A stretch of DNA of 64,000 nucleotides from an uncultured Bacilli bacterium (GCA_910584085.1 CAJTZY010000006.1:668-64667); one strand, 5' to 3'. Positions 8,172-49,692 are shown, numbered from the stretch's first letter. The notes: generated by a model from the letters alone, not told the origin. Numbers and translations are program-made.

Positions 8172-8649
8172 TGTCTTTTGATTTACTAAATAGACTTCTT
8201 TGATAATTACATAAAGCATCATCATACAATTTTAATTTTAAAGCATCTGTTATTATAGATGGTGTTTCGTAAGAACAAAGAGTTTCGATTTTATAATCAT
8301 AATATTTATTTTTATCAAAAAATAATCTTATATGTGCATAGTAACCATTTTTACTAGTTTTCTTATATTCAATAATTTTATATTTTTTATCTACAATGTT
8401 TTCAGCATTATAAACCTTAACTATTTCATTATTTGTTATATTTCTATTATTGAATTTTTTATATTTTGTTTTTCTGTTTATTTTCATAATAGCATTGGAA
8501 ATACCAACAATTATAGAACAAATTATTTTTATTCCATCGACAATCAAATATATTGGTATAAAAATCATTGCAGCCATACAACCAGACATTTCATTCAAAT
8601 CCTTTTTTGTAATTCCAATTTGAGTATAAAATGTTCTGCCTTTAGCCAT
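8161..8649 (-). CDS. membrane-anchored protein co-transcribed with the repressor (candidate superinfection-exclusion/Abi function)
   Basis: 162 aa with an N-terminal TM segment (AAMIFIPIYLIVDGIKIICSIIVGI). Its start overlaps the repressor stop. Function inferred from position only. Confidence 0.5.
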   Translation of the reverse strand: MAKGRTFYTQIGITKKDLNEMSGCMAAMIFIPIYLIVDGIKIICSIIVGISNAIMKINRKTKYKKFNNRNITNNEIVKVYNAENIVDKKYKIIEYKKTSKNGYYAHIRLFFDKNKYYDYKIETLCSYETPSIITDALKLKLYDDALCNYQRSLFSKSKDTNQ

Positions 8650-8992
8650 TTTTCTTATTCTCCTTTAAAGTTTCCACAACCAACATTGCCCTTTTAAAAT
8701 CCTCAACATCAAAATCTTGCCCTGCAATACTAATTCCTGCTTCTTGACATGCTATTTTAAGACGCTCTATTTTATCTAGATCATCTTGATTAAATCCTAA
8801 TAGGTAATCTGTTGTTACATTGAAATATTGTGCTAATTTGGTTAAAATATCATAACTTGGTTGAGCTTTGCCAACTTCCCATGCTGACACTGTAGAAAAT
8901 GTAACACCTAACATATCTGCCAATTCTGGTTGAGTAATTTTTTTTTCTTTACGCAATTCACGTAATCTATCTCCAAACAGATGAATCACCAT
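8642..8992 (-). CDS. CI-like XRE-family phage repressor
   Basis: HTH LRELRKEKKITQPELADMLGVTFSTVSAWEVGK. Divergent from the Cro-like gene. Confidence 0.8.
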   Translation of the reverse strand: MVIHLFGDRLRELRKEKKITQPELADMLGVTFSTVSAWEVGKAQPSYDILTKLAQYFNVTTDYLLGFNQDDLDKIERLKIACQEAGISIAGQDFDVEDFKRAMLVVETLKENKKNG

Positions 8993-9129
8993 CCTTTTCA
9001 GTTTTTTATATATACTTTAGTATATATAAATTATATCATAAAACCATCAAAAAGTATTGACATTTGTCTTTAAAAATCAAATTTTTTTTGAATTTTAGTA
9101 TAAAACTAAAAAAAAAATGTAAAAAGTTA

Positions 9130-9158
9130 TTGACAACTCGAAAAATATTTGATATTAT
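9130..9158 (+). promoter_or_regulatory. strong sigma-A promoter (rightward, early)
   Basis: TTGACA, 17-nt spacer with TGn, TATTAT. Confidence 0.6.
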
Positions 9159-9216
9159 TATATCGTAAGGTAGCAAGAGAACTACTTTGCAAGTGATAAA
9201 GTGGTGCTGATAGCAC

Positions 9217-9259
9217 AAAAAAAGAGTTAAGTCGAACCTGAGAAATTTGAACTTAACCC
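9217..9259 (-). terminator. Rho-independent terminator of a short leftward transcript
   Basis: On the minus strand: GGGTTAAGT ... ACTTAACTC stem followed by T7. Confidence 0.55.
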
Positions 9260-9324
9260 AAACAAACAAGATGAGAAATTATTTTCTCGTGACATTTATC
9301 TTGATAAGTGATAAATCTCTTATT

Positions 9325-9353
9325 TTGACATTGATGTCGTTTGAAAATAAAAT
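9325..9353 (+). promoter_or_regulatory. second rightward sigma-A promoter
   Basis: TTGACA, 17-nt spacer, TAAAAT. Confidence 0.5.
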
Positions 9354-9379
9354 CTCCAAAATATGTAGGAGCAAATTGC

Positions 9380-9429
9380 TCACCACCTTTCTTTTTTGGA
9401 TTTCCCTTCAAAGAAAAGTGTGCTACACA
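9380..9429 (-). promoter_or_regulatory. TGTAGCAC/AAGGGAA hairpin element, copy G (minus strand)
   Basis: Minus strand reads TGTGTAGCACacttttctttgAAGGGAAAtccaaaaaagaaaGGTGGTGA. It is closely similar to copy E (49693-49730). Confidence 0.6.
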
Positions 9430-9455
9430 TACACCACTTATCACAGATGTATAAG

Positions 9456-9538
9456 AACACCTATGACAAGTAGTACATTAATTGTACTATAACACCTAGT
9501 AAAAGTCAATAATTTTTATGAAATTTGCGATAGGTGTT
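9456..9538. promoter_or_regulatory. operator-like repeats (AACACCTA x2 direct, x1 inverted; AGTACA-n5-TGTACT inverted repeat)
   Basis: aacacctat 9456-9464, aacacctag 9491-9499, ataggtgtt 9530-9538, and an inverted repeat at 9471-9487. They overlap the leftward promoter. Confidence 0.45.
9481..9509 (-). promoter_or_regulatory. leftward sigma-A promoter driving the short antisense transcript
   Basis: Minus strand TTGACT, 17-nt spacer, TACAAT. Confidence 0.5.
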
Positions 9539-9574
9539 TTCTTATACCCAAACTTAAAAGAAAGGAGAAGAAAA

Positions 9575-9850
9575 ATGAAACAACTGGATTGGCGTGCAAA
9601 AAAAATTCAGACAGTTGATAAAAGATTCGCTCAAGCATTAGGCAATCAATTAAGACTGATTCGTGAAAAAAGAAAATTATCAATAAGAGATGTTCAAAGG
9701 CGAACTGGATTTTCAAAAACGCTCATTGATTATTGGGAATTAGGACTTACTAGAATAAAACCTGAACAATTAGAAACGTTATGTCAATTATACAATATTT
9801 CAAATAATTTAGACGTAAAAGTACGATTGGGATTTTTACTGGAAGATTAG
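9575..9850 (+). CDS. Cro-like XRE-family HTH protein
   Basis: Start moved to ATG 9575 (SD AAAGGAG 7 nt upstream). HTH IREKRKLSIRDVQRRTGFSKTLIDYWELG. Confidence 0.7.
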   Translation: MKQLDWRAKKIQTVDKRFAQALGNQLRLIREKRKLSIRDVQRRTGFSKTLIDYWELGLTRIKPEQLETLCQLYNISNNLDVKVRLGFLLED

Positions 9851-19087: not shown

Positions 19088-20953
19088 AAATAATGTTCTT
19101 TGGCAAATTGATAATTGAACTATATGACAAACTATAACGCAATATAGTATAGATATTATCTTGTTCTTATTACCTTTGAGAGCGATTTTAAAGGGGATTG
19201 AGTGCATTTTGTTGGAAACAGCGAAATGGTAACCTACAAAGTAGGGAAAAAGATAATAGTGGTTTATTGTAGAGTTTTATAAAATACAGAACTAATCGTT
19301 GACAATCATAACCACCTATGGTAAATAGGGCGATAACTTATTAGTAGTACTTTGTGTGGTTACAAAGAGTGAAAATAAGAATACCAATAAGTCAATTATG
19401 CAGTTGATACCTAGTGATAGGAGTATAAGATTAGAAACTGGTACAAGTAGCACAAACTTGCATAAAAAAAGCAAATTTGTAAATGAAAGATATAATGGTA
19501 TATTTGAATTTAACATCTAAAGTGTGTGAAAGTTGTTGGTAAAGAATCCAATGTAGTTTTAGGTTTATTGGAAATGATGGACTATAGTCTTTGAGCTATA
19601 GTATCCTGCATTTTTGATAAGCCAGGTATTAGAGGAAATGGGGTCGCAACCTATCAGGACTAATACTTGCTAGTGATTGAATAATAAATGGCTATAGTAA
19701 ATTAGTGTGAGAAACACCAATTATCAATTTGTCAAAGGGCATTATATGTCCTTTACCTCCAAATAATAAAGCACTATCTTTAGTAGGTAGTGTACTGAAT
19801 AATATGCATGAAACAGACTACAGTGTGAGCAATCGTAGGTGTGAGCATAGTAGCCAATGGGAACGGTTATTATTTAGTACAGTATCTATTAAGATACAAG
19901 ATACATAAATAGTCGTAGGAGTTTTAGCGTATTAAATTACGGTTTAGAAAGCCTTTACATACATATTTAATGTATTCACATAAGATGTGTCTTAATGTAA
20001 GAAAAACTAAGACGTAAGGTTGATGACCTTTGTATTAATGGATTGCAACGTAAACAGTCAGCTATATTCTAGAGATAGTGGTTGTAGTCTTGGGATTGCG
20101 GTCGGTGGAAATCCGATATGATGGGGGTCGGTATTCCCAGCCTAGCTTCGGCGACCTATAAGGTTAAACACAAAATAGAAAGCACCCATAGCCTAATACA
20201 AAAAATAGGCAGATACCATATCATCTTTATAGGTGATATAGAGCAATAAATAAAAATGGTGAGAATTACAAGGGAGAAAGCCACCTCTCTACCGTATTGT
20301 TATACAGTGGTGTTTAGCATGGAAAGTATAACGAGTAAAGTAATCAAATTTATTGTTCTATATTGTCTATAAGACAATGAAATGCGAGGATGACTACTCG
20401 GAATTGATTAGACGTTGTCTTTTCAATTTGTTGTTCAAGAACTTTCTATTTATCTTGGCTAGGGCAAGCTTACGAACAAAGTAGATGCGAAATGAGTTAA
20501 AGATCTTGTCAGTAGAGAATAACTGTCAGTATTTGCTACTAATAGCAAAAGCCCATTTAATAATTAATTAAAAGTTGAAAGTATCTTTTATCAAAACAAT
20601 AACGTATGGCGCTATTGTCGACTATAAGCCCCCAACGTGAGTTAGATATAAAAACATAGTCTATCGGTGCGTTTTCGCAAGCGAGTTTAATATGTCCGTA
20701 TGACGTGAGGAATAAAAGTGGTGAGTTATTCCAAGATAACCCAAATAAAAAAACTCGTAGATATTGTTCTCGTGAACGAACAGAGATTCACGTTGGTTAT
20801 GACAAACATACGCTGAGCTATCAGTAGTAATTCTAAGTAAGTTGTCGTAATGGGCAACCACGGTTATTGCTTAGAGAAATAGTGGAACGTCTAACAGTGT
20901 CTATGGGTTAGGCAAAGTCCGATTGAGTAAGGTAGGTTTTCAATTGGTTTAAT
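19088..20953 (+). ncRNA. ~1.87-kb unknown, probably highly structured non-coding RNA region (candidate giant ornate RNA, GOLLD/ROOL-like context)
   Basis: No + strand ORF of 60 aa or more. G+C is clearly elevated: hand counts give 26/60 at 19801 and 33/60 at 20101, against 15/60 at coding line 30001. It contains numerous local helices and is bracketed by tRNA or tRNA-like genes and an intrinsic terminator. The strand is inferred from the flanking tRNAs and terminator. Confidence 0.5.
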
Positions 20954-33204: not shown

Positions 33205-33426
33205 ATGACTAAATTATCAATAAAACAAAAACAAACAATGGAAGCAATAGCATATTTCATAAATACAAATGGCTATCCACCAACAACAAAAGAACTATCT
33301 AAAATATTAAATACATCACCTAGTGCAGTATTTAAAAAACTAATGATATTAGAAGAAAAAGGTTATATAAAAACATCGATTGGAAAAGCAAGATCTATTG
33401 TTGTAATGAAAGGGTGGGAAGAATGA
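33205..33426 (+). CDS. LexA N-terminal-type winged-helix protein (DNA-binding domain only)
   Basis: LSIKQKQTMEAIAYFINTNGYPPTTKELSKILNTSPSAVFKKLMILEEKGYI matches the LexA DNA-binding domain. No peptidase domain is present. Confidence 0.6.
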   Translation: MTKLSIKQKQTMEAIAYFINTNGYPPTTKELSKILNTSPSAVFKKLMILEEKGYIKTSIGKARSIVVMKGWEE

Positions 33427-35521: not shown

Positions 35522-35821
35522 ATGATAGTAAAAGCTTGCTATAAAGATAAAGATTTTGATTATTTTACAGATAAGGAAAATGGATTAGAAAGACACTATG
35601 GAGATATATTCGAGTGTTCTGATGATTTAGCGAATGAAAGAATCAAAAACAAATTTGTTAAGAAAGCAACAAAAGAGGAAGAAAAAGAATATTATGCTAA
35701 TCAAACAACAGTTGATGATGATATTCCAGTATCAACTGAACAAGAAGAACAACAAATGATTGATGACATAAATAATAATTGTACAGATGAATTAGAACAA
35801 TCAAATGGTGGTGAAGAATAG
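35522..35821 (+). CDS. hypothetical acidic protein
   Basis: ORF-track ORF with SD GAAGGAATGAAAA. Confidence 0.45.
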   Translation: MIVKACYKDKDFDYFTDKENGLERHYGDIFECSDDLANERIKNKFVKKATKEEEKEYYANQTTVDDDIPVSTEQEEQQMIDDINNNCTDELEQSNGGEE

Positions 35822-36690
35822 TGGGATCAATTATATTTAGTTTAATTTTAGTAGTAATAGTTGCTATATGTTTAGGAATAGGAAAAGCACCTGAGGATAG
35901 TGATTGGACTATGACTTGGAAATTTAGAAAAAGAATGATTTGGAGTCTATTGTGCCTATCAATTATACTATTTGGATGCTTTGCAACAATTAAAACAGGT
36001 GAAATTGGAATTAAAACTAGATTTGGTAAAATAGTAAATAGTACCAAAAATGAAGGAATCGTTTTTAAAAGTCCATTTGATAAAGTAGAGAAAATTAATA
36101 TTAAAGTACAAAAATATGAAAACAAAGATGTATTATCAACCTCTACAAAAGATATGCAAATAGTAAATAACATTAAAGTATCTATTAATTATCAAATTGA
36201 CGGAAACAAAGTAGTTGATTTATATAAAAGAGTAGGAACAGGTTATAAAGAAACGGTATTAGAACCAGCTATTCAGGAAACGATTAAAGGTGTTATTTCA
36301 AAATACACATCGGAGGAATTAGTTACAAAAAGAAGTGAGATTTCGCTTGATATAAATAATACACTAGATGAAAGAATTAAAACATATGGTATAAACAGTG
36401 TATCAGTAGCAATTAACAATTTTGATTTTAGTGAGGCGTACAATCAAGCCATCGAACAAAAAGCAGTATCTGAACAAAATGTATTAACAGCACAACAAGA
36501 ATTAGAAAAGGCTAAAGTCGAGGCAGAAAAGAAAGTAGTTGAAGCAGAGGCTACTAATAAAGCTAATGAATTATTAAAACAAAATGTTACTGATGAGGTA
36601 TTAGCAAAACAATTTATCGAAAAATGGAATGGTCAATTGCCAACCACTTATGCTGGTGATGACATATTAAAAATGTTTAATTTAAAATAA
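35821..36690 (+). CDS. SPFH/band-7 (prohibitin-like) membrane protein
   Basis: N-terminal TM, then an SPFH core (GEIGIKTRFGKIV ... TKDMQIVNNIKVSINYQI ... VLEPAIQETIKGVISKYTSEELVTKR ... INNFDFSEAYNQAIEQK) and a coiled-coil tail. Confidence 0.8.
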   Translation: MGSIIFSLILVVIVAICLGIGKAPEDSDWTMTWKFRKRMIWSLLCLSIILFGCFATIKTGEIGIKTRFGKIVNSTKNEGIVFKSPFDKVEKINIKVQKYENKDVLSTSTKDMQIVNNIKVSINYQIDGNKVVDLYKRVGTGYKETVLEPAIQETIKGVISKYTSEELVTKRSEISLDINNTLDERIKTYGINSVSVAINNFDFSEAYNQAIEQKAVSEQNVLTAQQELEKAKVEAEKKVVEAEATNKANELLKQNVTDEVLAKQFIEKWNGQLPTTYAGDDILKMFNLK

Positions 36691-38497: not shown

Positions 38498-38520
38498 ATA
38501 CTTATTAAGTATCTTTTTTT
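38496..38520 (+). terminator. Rho-independent terminator immediately after terL
   Basis: AGATACTT-att-AAGTATCT followed by T7. The stem starts inside the TAG stop codon. Confidence 0.6.
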
Positions 38521-38592
38521 GTGCAAAAAGGTGAATATTTGTTCTCCTTTTATACCTCAAACCTACCAATATTTCCATATATAGGATATAAA

Positions 38593-38640
38593 TGTAGCCG
38601 AAGGACAAGTTTTTTCCCTTAATAGTCCTTCAGTGCTACA
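38593..38640 (-). promoter_or_regulatory. TGTAGCAC/AAGGGAA element, copy F (consensus on the minus strand)
   Basis: Minus strand: TGTAGCACTgaaggactattAAGGGAAAAAacttgtccttcggctaca. The + strand therefore carries TGTAGCcGAAGGAC ... GTCCTTCaGTGCTACA with loop UUUUUCCCUU. Confidence 0.6.
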
Positions 38641-38726
38641 CGGGAGCATAACCGTAGAATTTATTTTATTGTTGTGTTCCCACATTTTATATTTTGGGAA
38701 TACCAAAGTATGAAAAGTGGTGAAAT

Positions 38727-40301
38727 ATGAAAAACGAAGAAGTAAAACCAACTGAAACAACAGTTGAAAATAATACAAATGCACAATTACCTACTAAAGA
38801 ACCTTATGCACCAAAATATGATGATACAAGGTTATATGGTAGAAAAATAATATATGCAGATTATGAGCCAGAAAATATGAATGCAGAAACAATAACAAAA
38901 ATATTAACTGATGTCTTTAGCATTCATTTGCAAAATTCAAGGGAAATAGATTATTTAGAAAAATATTATAAAGGATTTCAACCAATATTAAACAAAATAA
39001 AAGAAGTACGACCAACTATTAACAACAAAGTAGTTGAAAATAACGCTTATTTCTTAGTTGAGTTTAAAAAATCATTTGTATTTGGTAAACCAATTCAATA
39101 TGTGCAACGTGGAGATGTTGCAAATAAAGAGGTTGGAGCATTAAATAGTTATATGCTAGCAGAGGATAAATATCCTAAAGATACAGAACTAGCAGAAGAT
39201 TTATATATTGCTGGGATTGGACATAGATTAGTTCTTCCAGATATAAATGAAGATAGCCCATTTAGTATAGAAAATTTAGATAGCAAAACTACATTTATTG
39301 TTTATTCTAGTAGTTTACCACATAAAAAATTATTTGGTTGTACTTATACTAGAGGGATTAAAGATATAACAATAAAAGGTAGTATTTATACAAACAATGC
39401 TTTTTATAAATTTACAAGTGGAAGTCCATATAGTGCCTTTGATGTTCAATTTGTTAAATGGCACGTTTTAGGAGATATCCCAATATTTGAATACTTTTTA
39501 CATAAAAAAAGATTAGGAATTATCGAAGTCGTACTAGATTTGCTAAATGACATAAATAGAGTAACTTCTAATGAATTAGATGGGTTGGAACAATATGTAC
39601 AAAGTTTACTTGTATTTATAAATCAAGATATTGACAAAGAAGAATTAGAAAAAATGCTTGAAATGAATGCAGTAAAATTATGGTCTCCTGACCCTGGCAG
39701 AAATGCAGATTTAAAACTAATATCTAATGAAATAAATCATGCAAATACAAAAATCATGCACGATAAGTTATTTAACATGGCTTTAAATATTGTAGGAATA
39801 CCTAAAAATAGTGATAAAGCAAGTGGAGGAGATACAGGACAAGCTAGATATTTAGGTGAAGGTTGGACAATGGCAGATGCAAGAGCAGATGGCGATGAAA
39901 TGGAATTTAAACGTTGTTCTAAGCCTGAACTAAAAATGATACTTAGAATATGTAGACTTGCTCCAAATAGTGAAATAAATACATTAACACTTAAAGATAT
40001 AGACCAAAAATTCACTAGAAATAAATCAGATAATTTCTTAGTTAAATCACAAGGAATGATGAATCAAATTCAAAGTGGTGTATCACCTGATGTTGCAATG
40101 ACAACAAGTGGTTTATATAGTGATCCAAATGAAACATTTAATAAATCAATGGAGTTCTATGGTGGTATAGATAATTGGATTAAATTATTCGTTGGACAAG
40201 CACAAAAACAATTAAATGAAAAGAATAGCGATGGAAGTCCTAACAAGGCGACATCTGCCTCAAAAGATGAGTCTGGAGAGGTTAATAAACAAAAAAGTTA
40301 G
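38727..40301 (+). CDS. portal protein
   Basis: 524 aa, immediately after terL. Size and position are typical of SPP1-type portals. Confidence 0.75.
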   Translation: MKNEEVKPTETTVENNTNAQLPTKEPYAPKYDDTRLYGRKIIYADYEPENMNAETITKILTDVFSIHLQNSREIDYLEKYYKGFQPILNKIKEVRPTINNKVVENNAYFLVEFKKSFVFGKPIQYVQRGDVANKEVGALNSYMLAEDKYPKDTELAEDLYIAGIGHRLVLPDINEDSPFSIENLDSKTTFIVYSSSLPHKKLFGCTYTRGIKDITIKGSIYTNNAFYKFTSGSPYSAFDVQFVKWHVLGDIPIFEYFLHKKRLGIIEVVLDLLNDINRVTSNELDGLEQYVQSLLVFINQDIDKEELEKMLEMNAVKLWSPDPGRNADLKLISNEINHANTKIMHDKLFNMALNIVGIPKNSDKASGGDTGQARYLGEGWTMADARADGDEMEFKRCSKPELKMILRICRLAPNSEINTLTLKDIDQKFTRNKSDNFLVKSQGMMNQIQSGVSPDVAMTTSGLYSDPNETFNKSMEFYGGIDNWIKLFVGQAQKQLNEKNSDGSPNKATSASKDESGEVNKQKS

Positions 40302-40497
40302 AGGATAGAAAGACATTGACTATCGAGGCATGACGATGCTTAAGTGTAGGGAAACCGATTAGATGTGGGAAGTGATGCCCCACCTAACTTTATAGGGTTC
40401 ATAGGGTACGGGACTATGATTAAATACGCTCGAATATCTATTTAAAGATGTGTATTGGTAGCCCAGCCAAAGAAACTTTAGAAGCCTTTGGTCTTAT

Positions 40498-49650: not shown

Positions 49651-49692
49651 TCTCCTTATCTACTTAAAGTATATCAAAAAATATAAAAAATG

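Follow-up and report, generated by a model that had tools for sequence, protein, structure and literature searches.

In coliphages 186 (pR/pL) and P2 (Pe/Pc), the lytic promoter stands face to face with an opposing promoter that transcribes the repressor gene; the convergent start points are 35-62 nucleotides (nt) apart, the two promoters are able to interfere with each other, and shut-off of the opposing one is expected from an early protein of the Cro/Apl/Cox type. A different arrangement is represented by the sar RNA of the P22 immI region, the OOP RNA of lambda and the c4 RNAs of P1/P7, which are noncoding antisense transcripts of ~70-80 nt, equipped with their own promoter and terminator, lying within an early or immunity transcript and covering the ribosome site or the coding end of their target. 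Convergent promoters placed a few hundred nt apart are found in the prgQ/prgX region of plasmid pCF10 of Enterococcus faecalis, where one transcript carries a small peptide open reading frame (ORF) ahead of a terminator and the other overlaps it completely in antisense; this region is a bistable switch of plasmid conjugation with a secreted signalling peptide. Small proteins of 52-61 amino acids (aa), whose expression is activator-dependent, are encoded by the transcription factor-small ORF (TF-smORF) modules of Vibrio and Aeromonas phages, located away from cI-cro (Silpe, Duddy and Bassler 2023, PMC10432266). Here we describe the 582-bp spacer between the repressor gene and the Cro-like helix-turn-helix (HTH) gene of a ~50-kb prophage, contained in a 64,000-nt stretch of DNA (the window; GCA_910584085.1, CAJTZY010000006.1:668-64667) from the 1.58-Mb, roughly 25% GC genome of an uncultured gut Bacilli bacterium. 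We consider it rather probable that this spacer holds two nested control layers: (i) a divergent switch (~9006-9160) and (ii) a complete small gene on the opposite strand (9217-9509), placed in the early leader. Temperate-phage switches of uncultured gut Bacilli are, to our knowledge, essentially unstudied.

The spacer shares features with each of the described systems. As in 186 and P2, a rightward early promoter (P_R) and a leftward promoter (P_left) face each other, with predicted starts at ~9165 and ~9474, respectively, and both are conserved among related phages. In contrast to the coliphages, the start points are ~310 nt apart, the interference is one that we infer, and the leftward promoter does not transcribe the repressor gene: its transcript encodes a 31-aa protein and ends at a terminator (9259-9217) that precedes the repressor gene, which has its own promoter (-10 element at 9038-9030). 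The predicted leftward RNA also resembles sar, OOP and c4, being a short antisense transcript within an early transcript, with its own promoter and terminator opposite the target; the hexamers of P_left and the terminator are conserved. It differs from these RNAs in its length (~258 nt), in coding for a conserved protein, and in leaving the ribosome site and coding region of its target uncovered, as it stays ~100 nt clear of the Cro-like ribosome site (overlap 9217-9474; Shine-Dalgarno (SD) sequence 9561-9570). The layout of the TF-smORF modules, in which an XRE-type regulator adjoins a counter-oriented, unannotated and homologue-less small ORF placed for lysis-lysogeny control, recurs here with the HTH gene starting at 9575 and the ORF starting at 9374 on the other strand. 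Unlike those modules, the locus has a protein of only 31 aa, a promoter that looks constitutive and repressible, a position within the early leader and a hairpin mask of the type found before the late genes. By analogy, the TF-smORF modules would be the nearest functional precedent and suggest an antirepressor role, with which P_left does not fit, since it looks strong and repressible, which argues against activation by the regulator. The likeness to prgQ/prgX extends to the general layout only: the present locus is a phage switch, its small protein has no signal sequence, and there is no homology. The departures from the textbook layout are (i) a ~410-nt structured leader, (ii) a hidden antisense 31-aa gene with promoter and terminator, and (iii) a mask common to this gene and the virion genes.

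Identification of related phages

Searches with the spacer region gave no useful BLAST match among GenBank phages and only AT-rich noise in the 60 nearest genomes; an exact 18-mer scan of species-representative genomes gave matches at chance level only, and Rfam gave no match for 8900-9700, even at E = 10. Related phages in IMG/VR were located by a pattern scan for the late-gene element, a box and hairpin masking the SD sequence of late genes of the prophage (described below). Sequences of 18-20 nt from the spacer recovered further IMG/VR and metagenome matches, all belonging to one near-identical type (L130 type). A scan of 401 genomes of the same order for the element pattern revealed six more prophages, each with several element copies, and BLAST of 9120-9580 into these six identified diverged homologues of the whole spacer (68-89% identity over parts). 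Two further lineages, both short metagenomic contigs (L193 and L194), came from a profile search covering 1.84 billion representative proteins. In total, ten lineages were compared, eight of them aligned, plus L193 and L194; the comparison of P_R covered nine sequence variants, including L140. A check of the sequence located every feature listed in a first-pass annotation of the window at the position that it had been assigned.

The predicted leftward transcription unit

The comparison showed that the predicted promoters, 5' stem-loop, terminator and ORF are conserved with strand-specific and coding-specific signatures. The following features were distinguished in the leftward unit:

9509-9481, minus strand: P_left, TTGACT-17-TACAAT, matching 10 of 12 consensus positions; predicted start ~9474
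9433-9474, minus strand: SL1, the 18-bp 5' stem-loop of the leftward mRNA, containing repeat O1
9374-9279, minus strand: small gene, with start codon TTG (9374-9372), 31 codons (9374-9282) encoding MLLHILEILFSNDINVKIRDLSLIKINVTRK, and stop codon TAA (9281-9279)
9268-9292, minus strand: H4, a 25-nt hairpin at the 3' end of the small ORF, covering its final codons and stop codon and folding on both strands
9259-9217, minus strand: intrinsic terminator, hairpin 9259-9224 followed by U7 at 9223-9217
9457-9466, 9491-9500 and 9531-9540: AACACCTA-type repeats O1, O2 (in the promoter spacer) and O3 (inverted)
9470-9490: palindrome GTAGTAC-N7-GTACTAT, spanning the -10 element and the +1 position of P_left

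Matches of 10 of 12 positions occur 94 times in the window, hence the score of P_left alone is unremarkable. None of the eight aligned lineages departs from the hexamers TTGAC(T/A) and TACAAT, which flank 17-nt spacers of differing sequence. In L193 these hexamers are 18 nt apart, and the -10 element of L194 is TATATT. P_left is predicted to be a near-consensus promoter of the sigma-A type. The stem-loop SL1, in which all 18 pairs are predicted and many exchanges among G-U, G-C and A-U occur, is far more stable on the leftward strand in 8 of 8 lineages (-14 to -25 kcal/mol, vs. -3 to -13 kcal/mol rightward). The H4 segment folds in most lineages and is weak or unpaired in L130, L163 and L165. 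At the distal end, a stable hairpin of -10.9 kcal/mol (minus strand), made up of a 10-bp stem and an inner helix, is followed at once by the U-tract. Compensatory changes were found in 6 of the 11 pairs of this stem and a T-run comes after it in every lineage; moreover, one G-U pair exists on the leftward strand only, and the leftward fold is the more stable one in 8 of 8 lineages. Both the leftward promoter and the terminator had been proposed in the first-pass annotation, and their conserved hexamers, U-run and compensatory pairs bear these predictions out. The promoter-terminator unit is supported as strongly as comparison of sequences permits.

The predicted leftward RNA has 258 nt in the window (9474 to 9217) and 253-278 nt in seven lineages, and it is complementary over its whole length to the early leader. 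The first-pass annotation had described it as an antisense RNA; its full complementarity to the leader stands, but it is not merely antisense. The 31-aa ORF that it carries is a conserved coding gene (see below), and therefore the leftward RNA is a small mRNA in addition to being antisense.

The AACACC repeats and the GTAGTAC-N7-GTACTAT palindrome around P_left are conserved in all lineages. Repeats O1 and O3 extend to an inverted repeat of 16-19 bp, and the flanks of both arms change in concert. Either strand of this repeat pairs as well as the other, and protein sites are here indistinguishable from an RNA helix: the repeats and the palindrome may be sites for the Cro-like protein, or may form a long helix in the early leader RNA, immediately before the ribosome site of the Cro-like gene. 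The P_left palindrome was also considered as a LexA box and rejected, as it differs in type from the Cheo-type boxes of the host (CGAACATTTATTCG, TGAACAAATGTTTG); such boxes lie upstream of the host's own lexA gene, and full-length LexA is encoded on contig C14.

The 31-codon gene

The small ORF is the only ORF of the spacer, on either strand, that is present in all eight aligned lineages, and it was also found in L193 and L194. It begins with TTG in five lineages (the window, L160, L162, L161 and L165), ATG in two (L163 and L164) and ATA in three (L130, L193 and L194). A GGTGA-type SD sequence lies 3-6 nt before the start in seven of the eight aligned lineages (not in L165) as well as in L193 and L194. 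Pairwise substitutions increase from codon position 2 through 1 to 3 (e.g., 5/2/13 and 4/1/9 at positions 1/2/3), and the ratio of nonsynonymous to synonymous substitution rates (dN/dS) is <0.5 in most lineage pairs, with dS often saturated. Four columns (F10, D20, L23 and K25) are invariant in both protein alignments, and the consensus of the protein is MLxxILELLFKNxINIKIGDISLIKINxxRE. A six-frame search of the 401 genomes with a hidden Markov model gave strong E-values (6e-12 or better) only in the 7 genomes bearing such phages. The first-pass annotation had set this ORF aside as weak; its coding-type substitutions and a frame open in all lineages identify it as a real gene.

The AlphaFold2 model, built from an eight-sequence alignment, consists of a helix (residues 2-11) and a beta-hairpin (14-19 and 23-28), with a predicted local distance difference test (pLDDT) score of 67. 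The sole database entries for the protein are P0001 (L194) and P0002 (L193), both 58-aa calls in which the translated leader hairpin is fused to the 31-aa ORF; standard annotation therefore misses or mis-calls this small-protein family. A likeness of the protein to the IGD motif of CsrA was rejected, as no profile search supports it.

Two other ORFs of the region were also rejected. The 63-aa ORF with a GTG start (9253-9444, minus strand), rated as weak in the first-pass annotation, is indeed seen in the window, and it is not conserved, hence it is no gene. The amino acid sequence of an 80/81-aa plus-strand ORF is likewise not conserved, and this ORF is broken in three lineages; its frame looks open and synonymous-biased because its wobble positions are shared with the real minus-strand frame.

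Additional small ORFs occur in two relatives. In L164 (G349:C7, ~1730-1830), a tandem second copy of the small ORF, without its own start codon or SD sequence, lies in frame after the first stop codon, and may be either a decaying duplication or a read-through extension. Both L164 (~1890-2090) and L194 (220-440) carry a second small gene behind a TGTAGCAC leader, with its own terminator in L164. Its product, MDIT(L/I)HFE(G/N)L(L/I)DCI..SLI(R/K)TY(N/S)TR(D/K), is a hydrophobic peptide of 31 aa whose ends are polar, and looks like a type I toxin or a holin.

The late-gene leader element in front of the small gene

The first-pass annotation had recognized a seventh copy (G) of the late-gene leader element in the leftward RNA. 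Copy G and the corresponding leaders of the window are as follows:

9364-9431, minus strand: copy G, consisting of box, hairpin, SD sequence, second hairpin and closing helix (exact pattern matches)
9429-9420, minus strand: box TGTGTAGCAC, identical to the box of the copy at 49691-49692
9408-9401, minus strand: hairpin loop AAGGGAAA, exact match
9387-9380, minus strand: SD sequence GGTGGTGA in the 3' arm of the hairpin, followed by 5 nt and the TTG codon at 9374
9381-9369, minus strand: second hairpin GAGCAATTTGCTC, containing the start codon
36701, 41534, 44477, 45771 and 49691-49692: copies in late-gene leaders

The pattern GTAGCAC-N3-16-GGGAA occurs 7 times in the 1.58-Mb genome, each time within the prophage, and the reversed pattern used as a control gave 0 matches. 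Every defining feature of the element was found in copy G: (i) the 5' box (R)TGTAGCAC; (ii) a hairpin in which the CAC of the box pairs with the GUG of the SD sequence (stem CAC-UUUUCUUU / AAAGAAAG-GUG), the stem having a different sequence in all seven copies and being free to vary; (iii) the loop (A)AGGGAA(A); and (iv) a GGTGA-type SD sequence 4-6 nt before the start of a real gene. The late leaders share the box, the CAC/GUG hairpin, the GGGAA loop and this SD spacing with copy G, and the leader at 49691-49692 is nearly identical to it. Unlike the late leaders, copy G belongs to the immunity region, where it precedes a gene of 31 codons on the opposite strand; its start codon is placed in a second hairpin, and it is closed by an extra helix (TGTAG/CTACA), which is present also in an inverted copy of the element between terL and the portal gene and is missing from the late leaders. 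The fold of copy G has -17.8 kcal/mol (z -4.0) on the minus strand, vs. -9.6 kcal/mol on the plus strand.

Copy G is conserved in related phages, with the same architecture in L163 and L164 and variants of it in L130, L160, L162, L193 and L194. Each lineage has its SD sequence or its start codon base-paired; in L161 and L165 the masks are hairpins unrelated to the late-type box. Masking of the ribosome-binding site is therefore universal, and the late-gene element is a common but not an obligatory means of achieving it. A shared trans-acting factor that would link the immunity decision with translation of the late genes had been suggested in the first-pass annotation; such a link would be plausible, although not universal. 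A Pfam scan of ten genes ahead of the late region detected no known RNA-binding protein.

On the plus strand, the complement of copy G pairs strongly with all late leaders, and the leader at 49691 gives the most stable pairing (-47 kcal/mol, z -8.9). Pairs with late leaders are predicted also for the inverted copy located between terL and the portal gene, none of them as stable as this one. This inverted copy (38500-38720, minus strand) has in the window a weak leftward promoter-like sequence upstream (TTCATA-17-TATAAA) and a 29-aa ORF downstream; in the relatives it lacks this ORF and any SD sequence, and so differs in kind from copy G.

The divergent switch and the early leader

The remaining features of the spacer and its flanking genes belong to the divergent switch and the early leader:

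8642-8992, minus strand: repressor gene, 116 aa, with an N-terminal HTH_3 domain and a short C-terminal domain
9006-9040, minus strand: repressor promoter region, with an extended -10 element TGATATAAT at 9038-9030 (read from the sequence)
9006-9029: palindrome TTATATATAC-N-GTATATATAA, between the -10 element of the repressor promoter and the repressor start codon
9130-9158, plus strand: P_R, TTGACA-14-TGATATTAT (TTGACA-17-TATTAT); predicted transcript start ~9164-9166
9165-9190, plus strand: H1, the 5' hairpin of the early leader RNA, -9.8 kcal/mol (-4.6 kcal/mol on the minus strand)
9193-9216, plus strand: left arm of an inverted repeat, GTGATAAAGTGGTG (partner arm 9433-9445), and a small hairpin GTGCTGATAGCAC
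9325-9353, plus strand: second promoter-like match, TTGACA-17-TAAAAT, 11 of 12 positions, lying over the small-ORF codons N-V-K
9575-9850, plus strand: Cro-like HTH gene, the first early gene, 91 aa, with SD sequence AAAGGAGAAG at 9561-9570

The repressor matches Pfam HTH_3 (1.7e-18) and the transcriptional regulator/repressor families of PHROG, and no S24 peptidase domain was found in it with Pfam. P_R matches the consensus at 11 of 12 positions and has an extended -10 TG. The sequence TTGAC(A/T)-14-TGnTAT(T/C)AT lies at a constant distance from hairpin H1 in 8 of the 9 sequence variants, with spacers that all differ; the remaining variant, L140, has TTGACT-14-TGGTATATT at this position, i.e., another -10 element. 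The repeats flanking P_R co-vary with the type of the recognition helix (helix 3) of the repressor, three HTH types being accompanied by three sets of repeats. Type A, VR(K/R)SS(I/V)SNWET, found in L140, L162, L161 and L163, pairs with AGTAAAAAAATGAAC repeats, of which two lie upstream in direct orientation and a third is inverted within the P_R spacer, and type B, STVSAWEVGKAQP, found in the window and L164, pairs with a AAAAATATTTGATAT spacer; L130, L160 and L165 have other HTH types. Two pairs, L130/L140 and L160/L162, are near-identical except for the N-terminal half of the repressor and the operator region, which have been exchanged together. In both pairs the right-hand boundary of the swap coincides exactly with the predicted start of the early transcript, beyond which leader and Cro-like gene remain unchanged. 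Since the HTH half of the repressor and the flanking repeats swap together, we read 9130-9158 as the repressor-controlled early promoter. P_R stands back to back with the extended -10 promoter of the repressor, the flanking repeats being the predicted repressor operators. Locating such repressor-specific operators and their swaps is useful for predicting and defining immunity groups among prophages of this kind.

The first-pass annotation had proposed two rightward promoters and had assigned an operator-like role to the AACACCTA repeats. The promoter at 9130-9158 is upheld by its retention across lineages and by the co-variation of its operators with the repressor helix; the repressor-covarying operators sit there and not at the AACACCTA repeats. 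The match at 9325-9353 is present but not conserved, being replaced by TTGATA..TAGTAA in the L130 type and absent from the other lineages, and it is probably fortuitous. Matches of at least 11 of 12 positions number 13 on both strands of the 64-kb window (7.1 +/- 2.1 in shuffled sequences), so that two of them within 200 bp are unusual. A rightward promoter right before the Cro-like gene (ATGACA-16-TACTAT, 9463-9490) was considered unlikely, as its -10 element is TACTAC in most lineages. Because there is no conserved rightward promoter nearer to the Cro-like gene, the ~410-nt leader (~9165 to the ATG at 9575), already proposed in the first-pass annotation, appears real as far as sequence can tell.

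The leader is conserved in related phages, and 9160-9575 is ~80% identical between the window and the L130 type, more than the repressor (~55%, by eye). The H1 fold is favoured in the rightward orientation in 6 of 8 lineages. In the minimum-energy fold of the plus strand, the arm 9193-9206 is joined with 9433-9445; this helix is conserved, and its covariation is weak, with one-sided changes only. The promoter block of the repressor, including the 9006-9029 palindrome, is invariant or nearly so across lineages despite their differing repressor HTH types, and the palindrome is a candidate for a site of the Cro-like protein or for an mRNA hairpin. The Cro-like protein (Pfam HTH_31, HTH_19 and HTH_3) varies independently of the repressor/operator module: L130 and L140 encode the same Cro-like protein along with different repressor HTH domains, and therefore this protein does not share the operators of the repressor. 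Across lineages, Cro-like proteins have a semi-conserved common helix-3 motif, S(K/R)xx(I/L/V)(D/N)x(W/F/Y)ELG.

Proposed mechanism and alternative explanations

The following mechanism is proposed for the two nested layers. P_R and P_left would fire towards each other, with fully complementary RNAs, and the leftward unit would damp the Cro-like gene and the early operon through polymerase collision and sense-antisense pairing, acting as a second lock on lysogeny. In the lysogen, P_R would be repressed and P_left free, and stray early transcripts would meet opposing polymerases and antisense RNA before the Cro-like gene. Once the repressor is lost, the stronger P_R would win and the Cro-like protein would accumulate and then shut P_left off; this protein, and not the repressor, would act at the conserved putative sites around P_left, with shut-off as its most likely effect. 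The output of small protein would be held low by the masked SD sequence together with the weakness of the start codon, which is UUG or AUA in most lineages, and in this phage the gene might be unmasked by whatever opens the identical hairpins before the virion genes. As to the function of the protein, our preferred guess is a small modulator of the switch, acting on the repressor or on the Cro-like protein.

Several points weigh against this scheme. All transcript start and end points are predicted ones, and the protein acting around P_left is one that we only infer. The automatic terminator scan, whose criteria were a loop of 3-8 nt and a stem without bulges, called nothing at 9259-9217; this terminator was missed because of its bulge and loop size. 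A better fit to the rightward strand is seen for hairpins H1 and H4 and for some single-base variants; as structure is probably present on both strands, the constraints on them cannot be fully separated. As regards the small protein, neither it nor any other ORF of the spacer has relatives in Pfam or PHROGs, its structure model is only moderately confident, the ATA at the start position of L130, L193 and L194 is a rare start codon, and a one-base deletion (frameshift) in L163 ends the protein at 25 aa. Finally, the late-type box is absent before the small gene in L161 and L165, and therefore a tie to the late genes is no constant trait of this locus.

Some of these points could be taken to mean that the leftward RNA is a purely noncoding antisense regulator, with an ORF conserved through the constraint on RNA structure only. 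The three lineages with ATA and the one with a shortened ORF agree with such a view, as do the predicted transcription of the region in the opposite direction and the structure on both strands. We regard it as very improbable, since the codon-position pattern fits the minus frame and not the wobble-sharing plus frame, replacements are conservative with several columns invariant, the frame stays open throughout the ten lineages, in an AT-rich genome, the SD sequence is properly spaced in most of them, and no conserved helix is predicted in the coding part. If the ORF is coding, the unit might still belong to a module resembling type I toxin-antitoxin systems, in which an mRNA with a masked ribosome site and a 5' hairpin encodes a toxic peptide and the early leader, the only antisense transcript predicted for the small gene, serves as the antitoxin. 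The masked SD sequence, the 5' stem-loop, the complete antisense overlap and the prophage location are all typical of this kind of module, and L164 and L194 carry their toxin-like second leftward gene in the same slot behind the same leader. Nevertheless, the conserved 31-aa protein, as modelled, is not of the membrane type (a nine-residue hydrophobic helix, an amphipathic beta-hairpin and a net charge of about +2), and its predicted antisense partner is the leader of an early operon transcribed from the repressor-controlled P_R instead of a dedicated small RNA with its own terminator. This leader would be absent in the lysogen, when an antitoxin is needed, and the place of the unit inside the switch is fixed in all ten lineages; a toxin-antitoxin function is thus highly unlikely.

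The Cro-like protein and the counter-oriented small ORF could alternatively constitute an induction module, in which the factor controls the ORF promoter and the small protein inactivates the repressor, leading to lysis without cleavage. An XRE-type HTH gene does adjoin a counter-oriented small ORF without homologues or domains, with repeated sites in the promoter between them, in agreement with the published layout (Silpe et al., 2023, PMC10432266). The repressor lacks an S24 peptidase domain, which fits the antirepressor idea, and some non-proteolytic route of induction is therefore expected; analogy with the published modules suggests that the small protein may act as an antirepressor on the phage repressor. 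However, P_left is near consensus with a 17-nt spacer and has sites in this spacer and over -10/+1, i.e., it looks repressed and not activator-dependent; the protein has 31 aa, compared with 52-61 aa in the published modules (PMC10432266), and its variants do not follow the C-terminal type of the repressor, so that we consider an induction module unlikely. The remaining explanation assigns the function of copy G to the plus strand, where, as part of the early leader RNA, it would act as an anti-leader that pairs with the hairpins of the late leaders to open or block their ribosome sites, the leftward ORF being incidental. It draws on the complementarity to the 49691 leader, which exceeds any pairing by the terL-portal copy, and on the closing helix common to these two copies and missing from the late leaders. 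Such complementarity, however, follows automatically from G being a copy of the leader; the hairpin favours the minus strand by a wide margin, the leader of 6 of 8 lineages folds better in the leftward sense, and copy G, unlike the terL-portal copy, has an SD sequence, a properly spaced start codon and a conserved ORF. An anti-leader function with an incidental ORF is distinctly improbable, although the anti-leader and the small-gene readings of copy G do not exclude each other.

Within the preferred reading of two nested layers, we treat as improbable the further idea that one TGTAGCAC-box hairpin device gates both the virion genes and the 31-residue switch protein through a common unmasking factor. 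If such gating occurs, candidates for the factor are the complementary RNA from the terL-portal region, the early leader itself, or a protein. Release of the small protein together with late translation could then give irreversible commitment, as a small antirepressor would; alternatively, the leader might act in the lysogen as a decoy that soaks up the unmasking RNA. Common gating would tie the immunity switch directly, through RNA, to translation of the late genes, a connection of which we know no described case. If the predicted transcripts exist, the locus would represent a compact case of convergent transcription, antisense pairing and a small protein combined in one switch, would define a new small-protein family, and would offer a handle on whether a common factor opens the hairpin element.

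Other features of the prophage

To the left of the spacer, reading leftward, the prophage carries the HTH repressor gene (8642-8992), a 162-aa ORF and the integrase gene; to the right, reading rightward, the Cro-like HTH gene (9575-9850) is followed by replication genes. A 73-aa ORF at 33205-33426 (plus strand) encodes only the DNA-binding domain of LexA (PF01726, 9.9e-15), without the cleavage/dimerisation domain, and could be an uncleavable LexA mimic. An SPFH/Band 7 protein (PF01145, 2.2e-31) is encoded at 35821-36690 (plus strand), directly upstream of the terL leader, where a small terminase subunit is usually expected. Two matches to RNA families at the Rfam gathering level also lie in the prophage, beside phage tRNA genes: a ROOL RNA at 19096-19736 (172.7 bits) and a skipping-rope RNA at 40294-40391 (43.1 bits).

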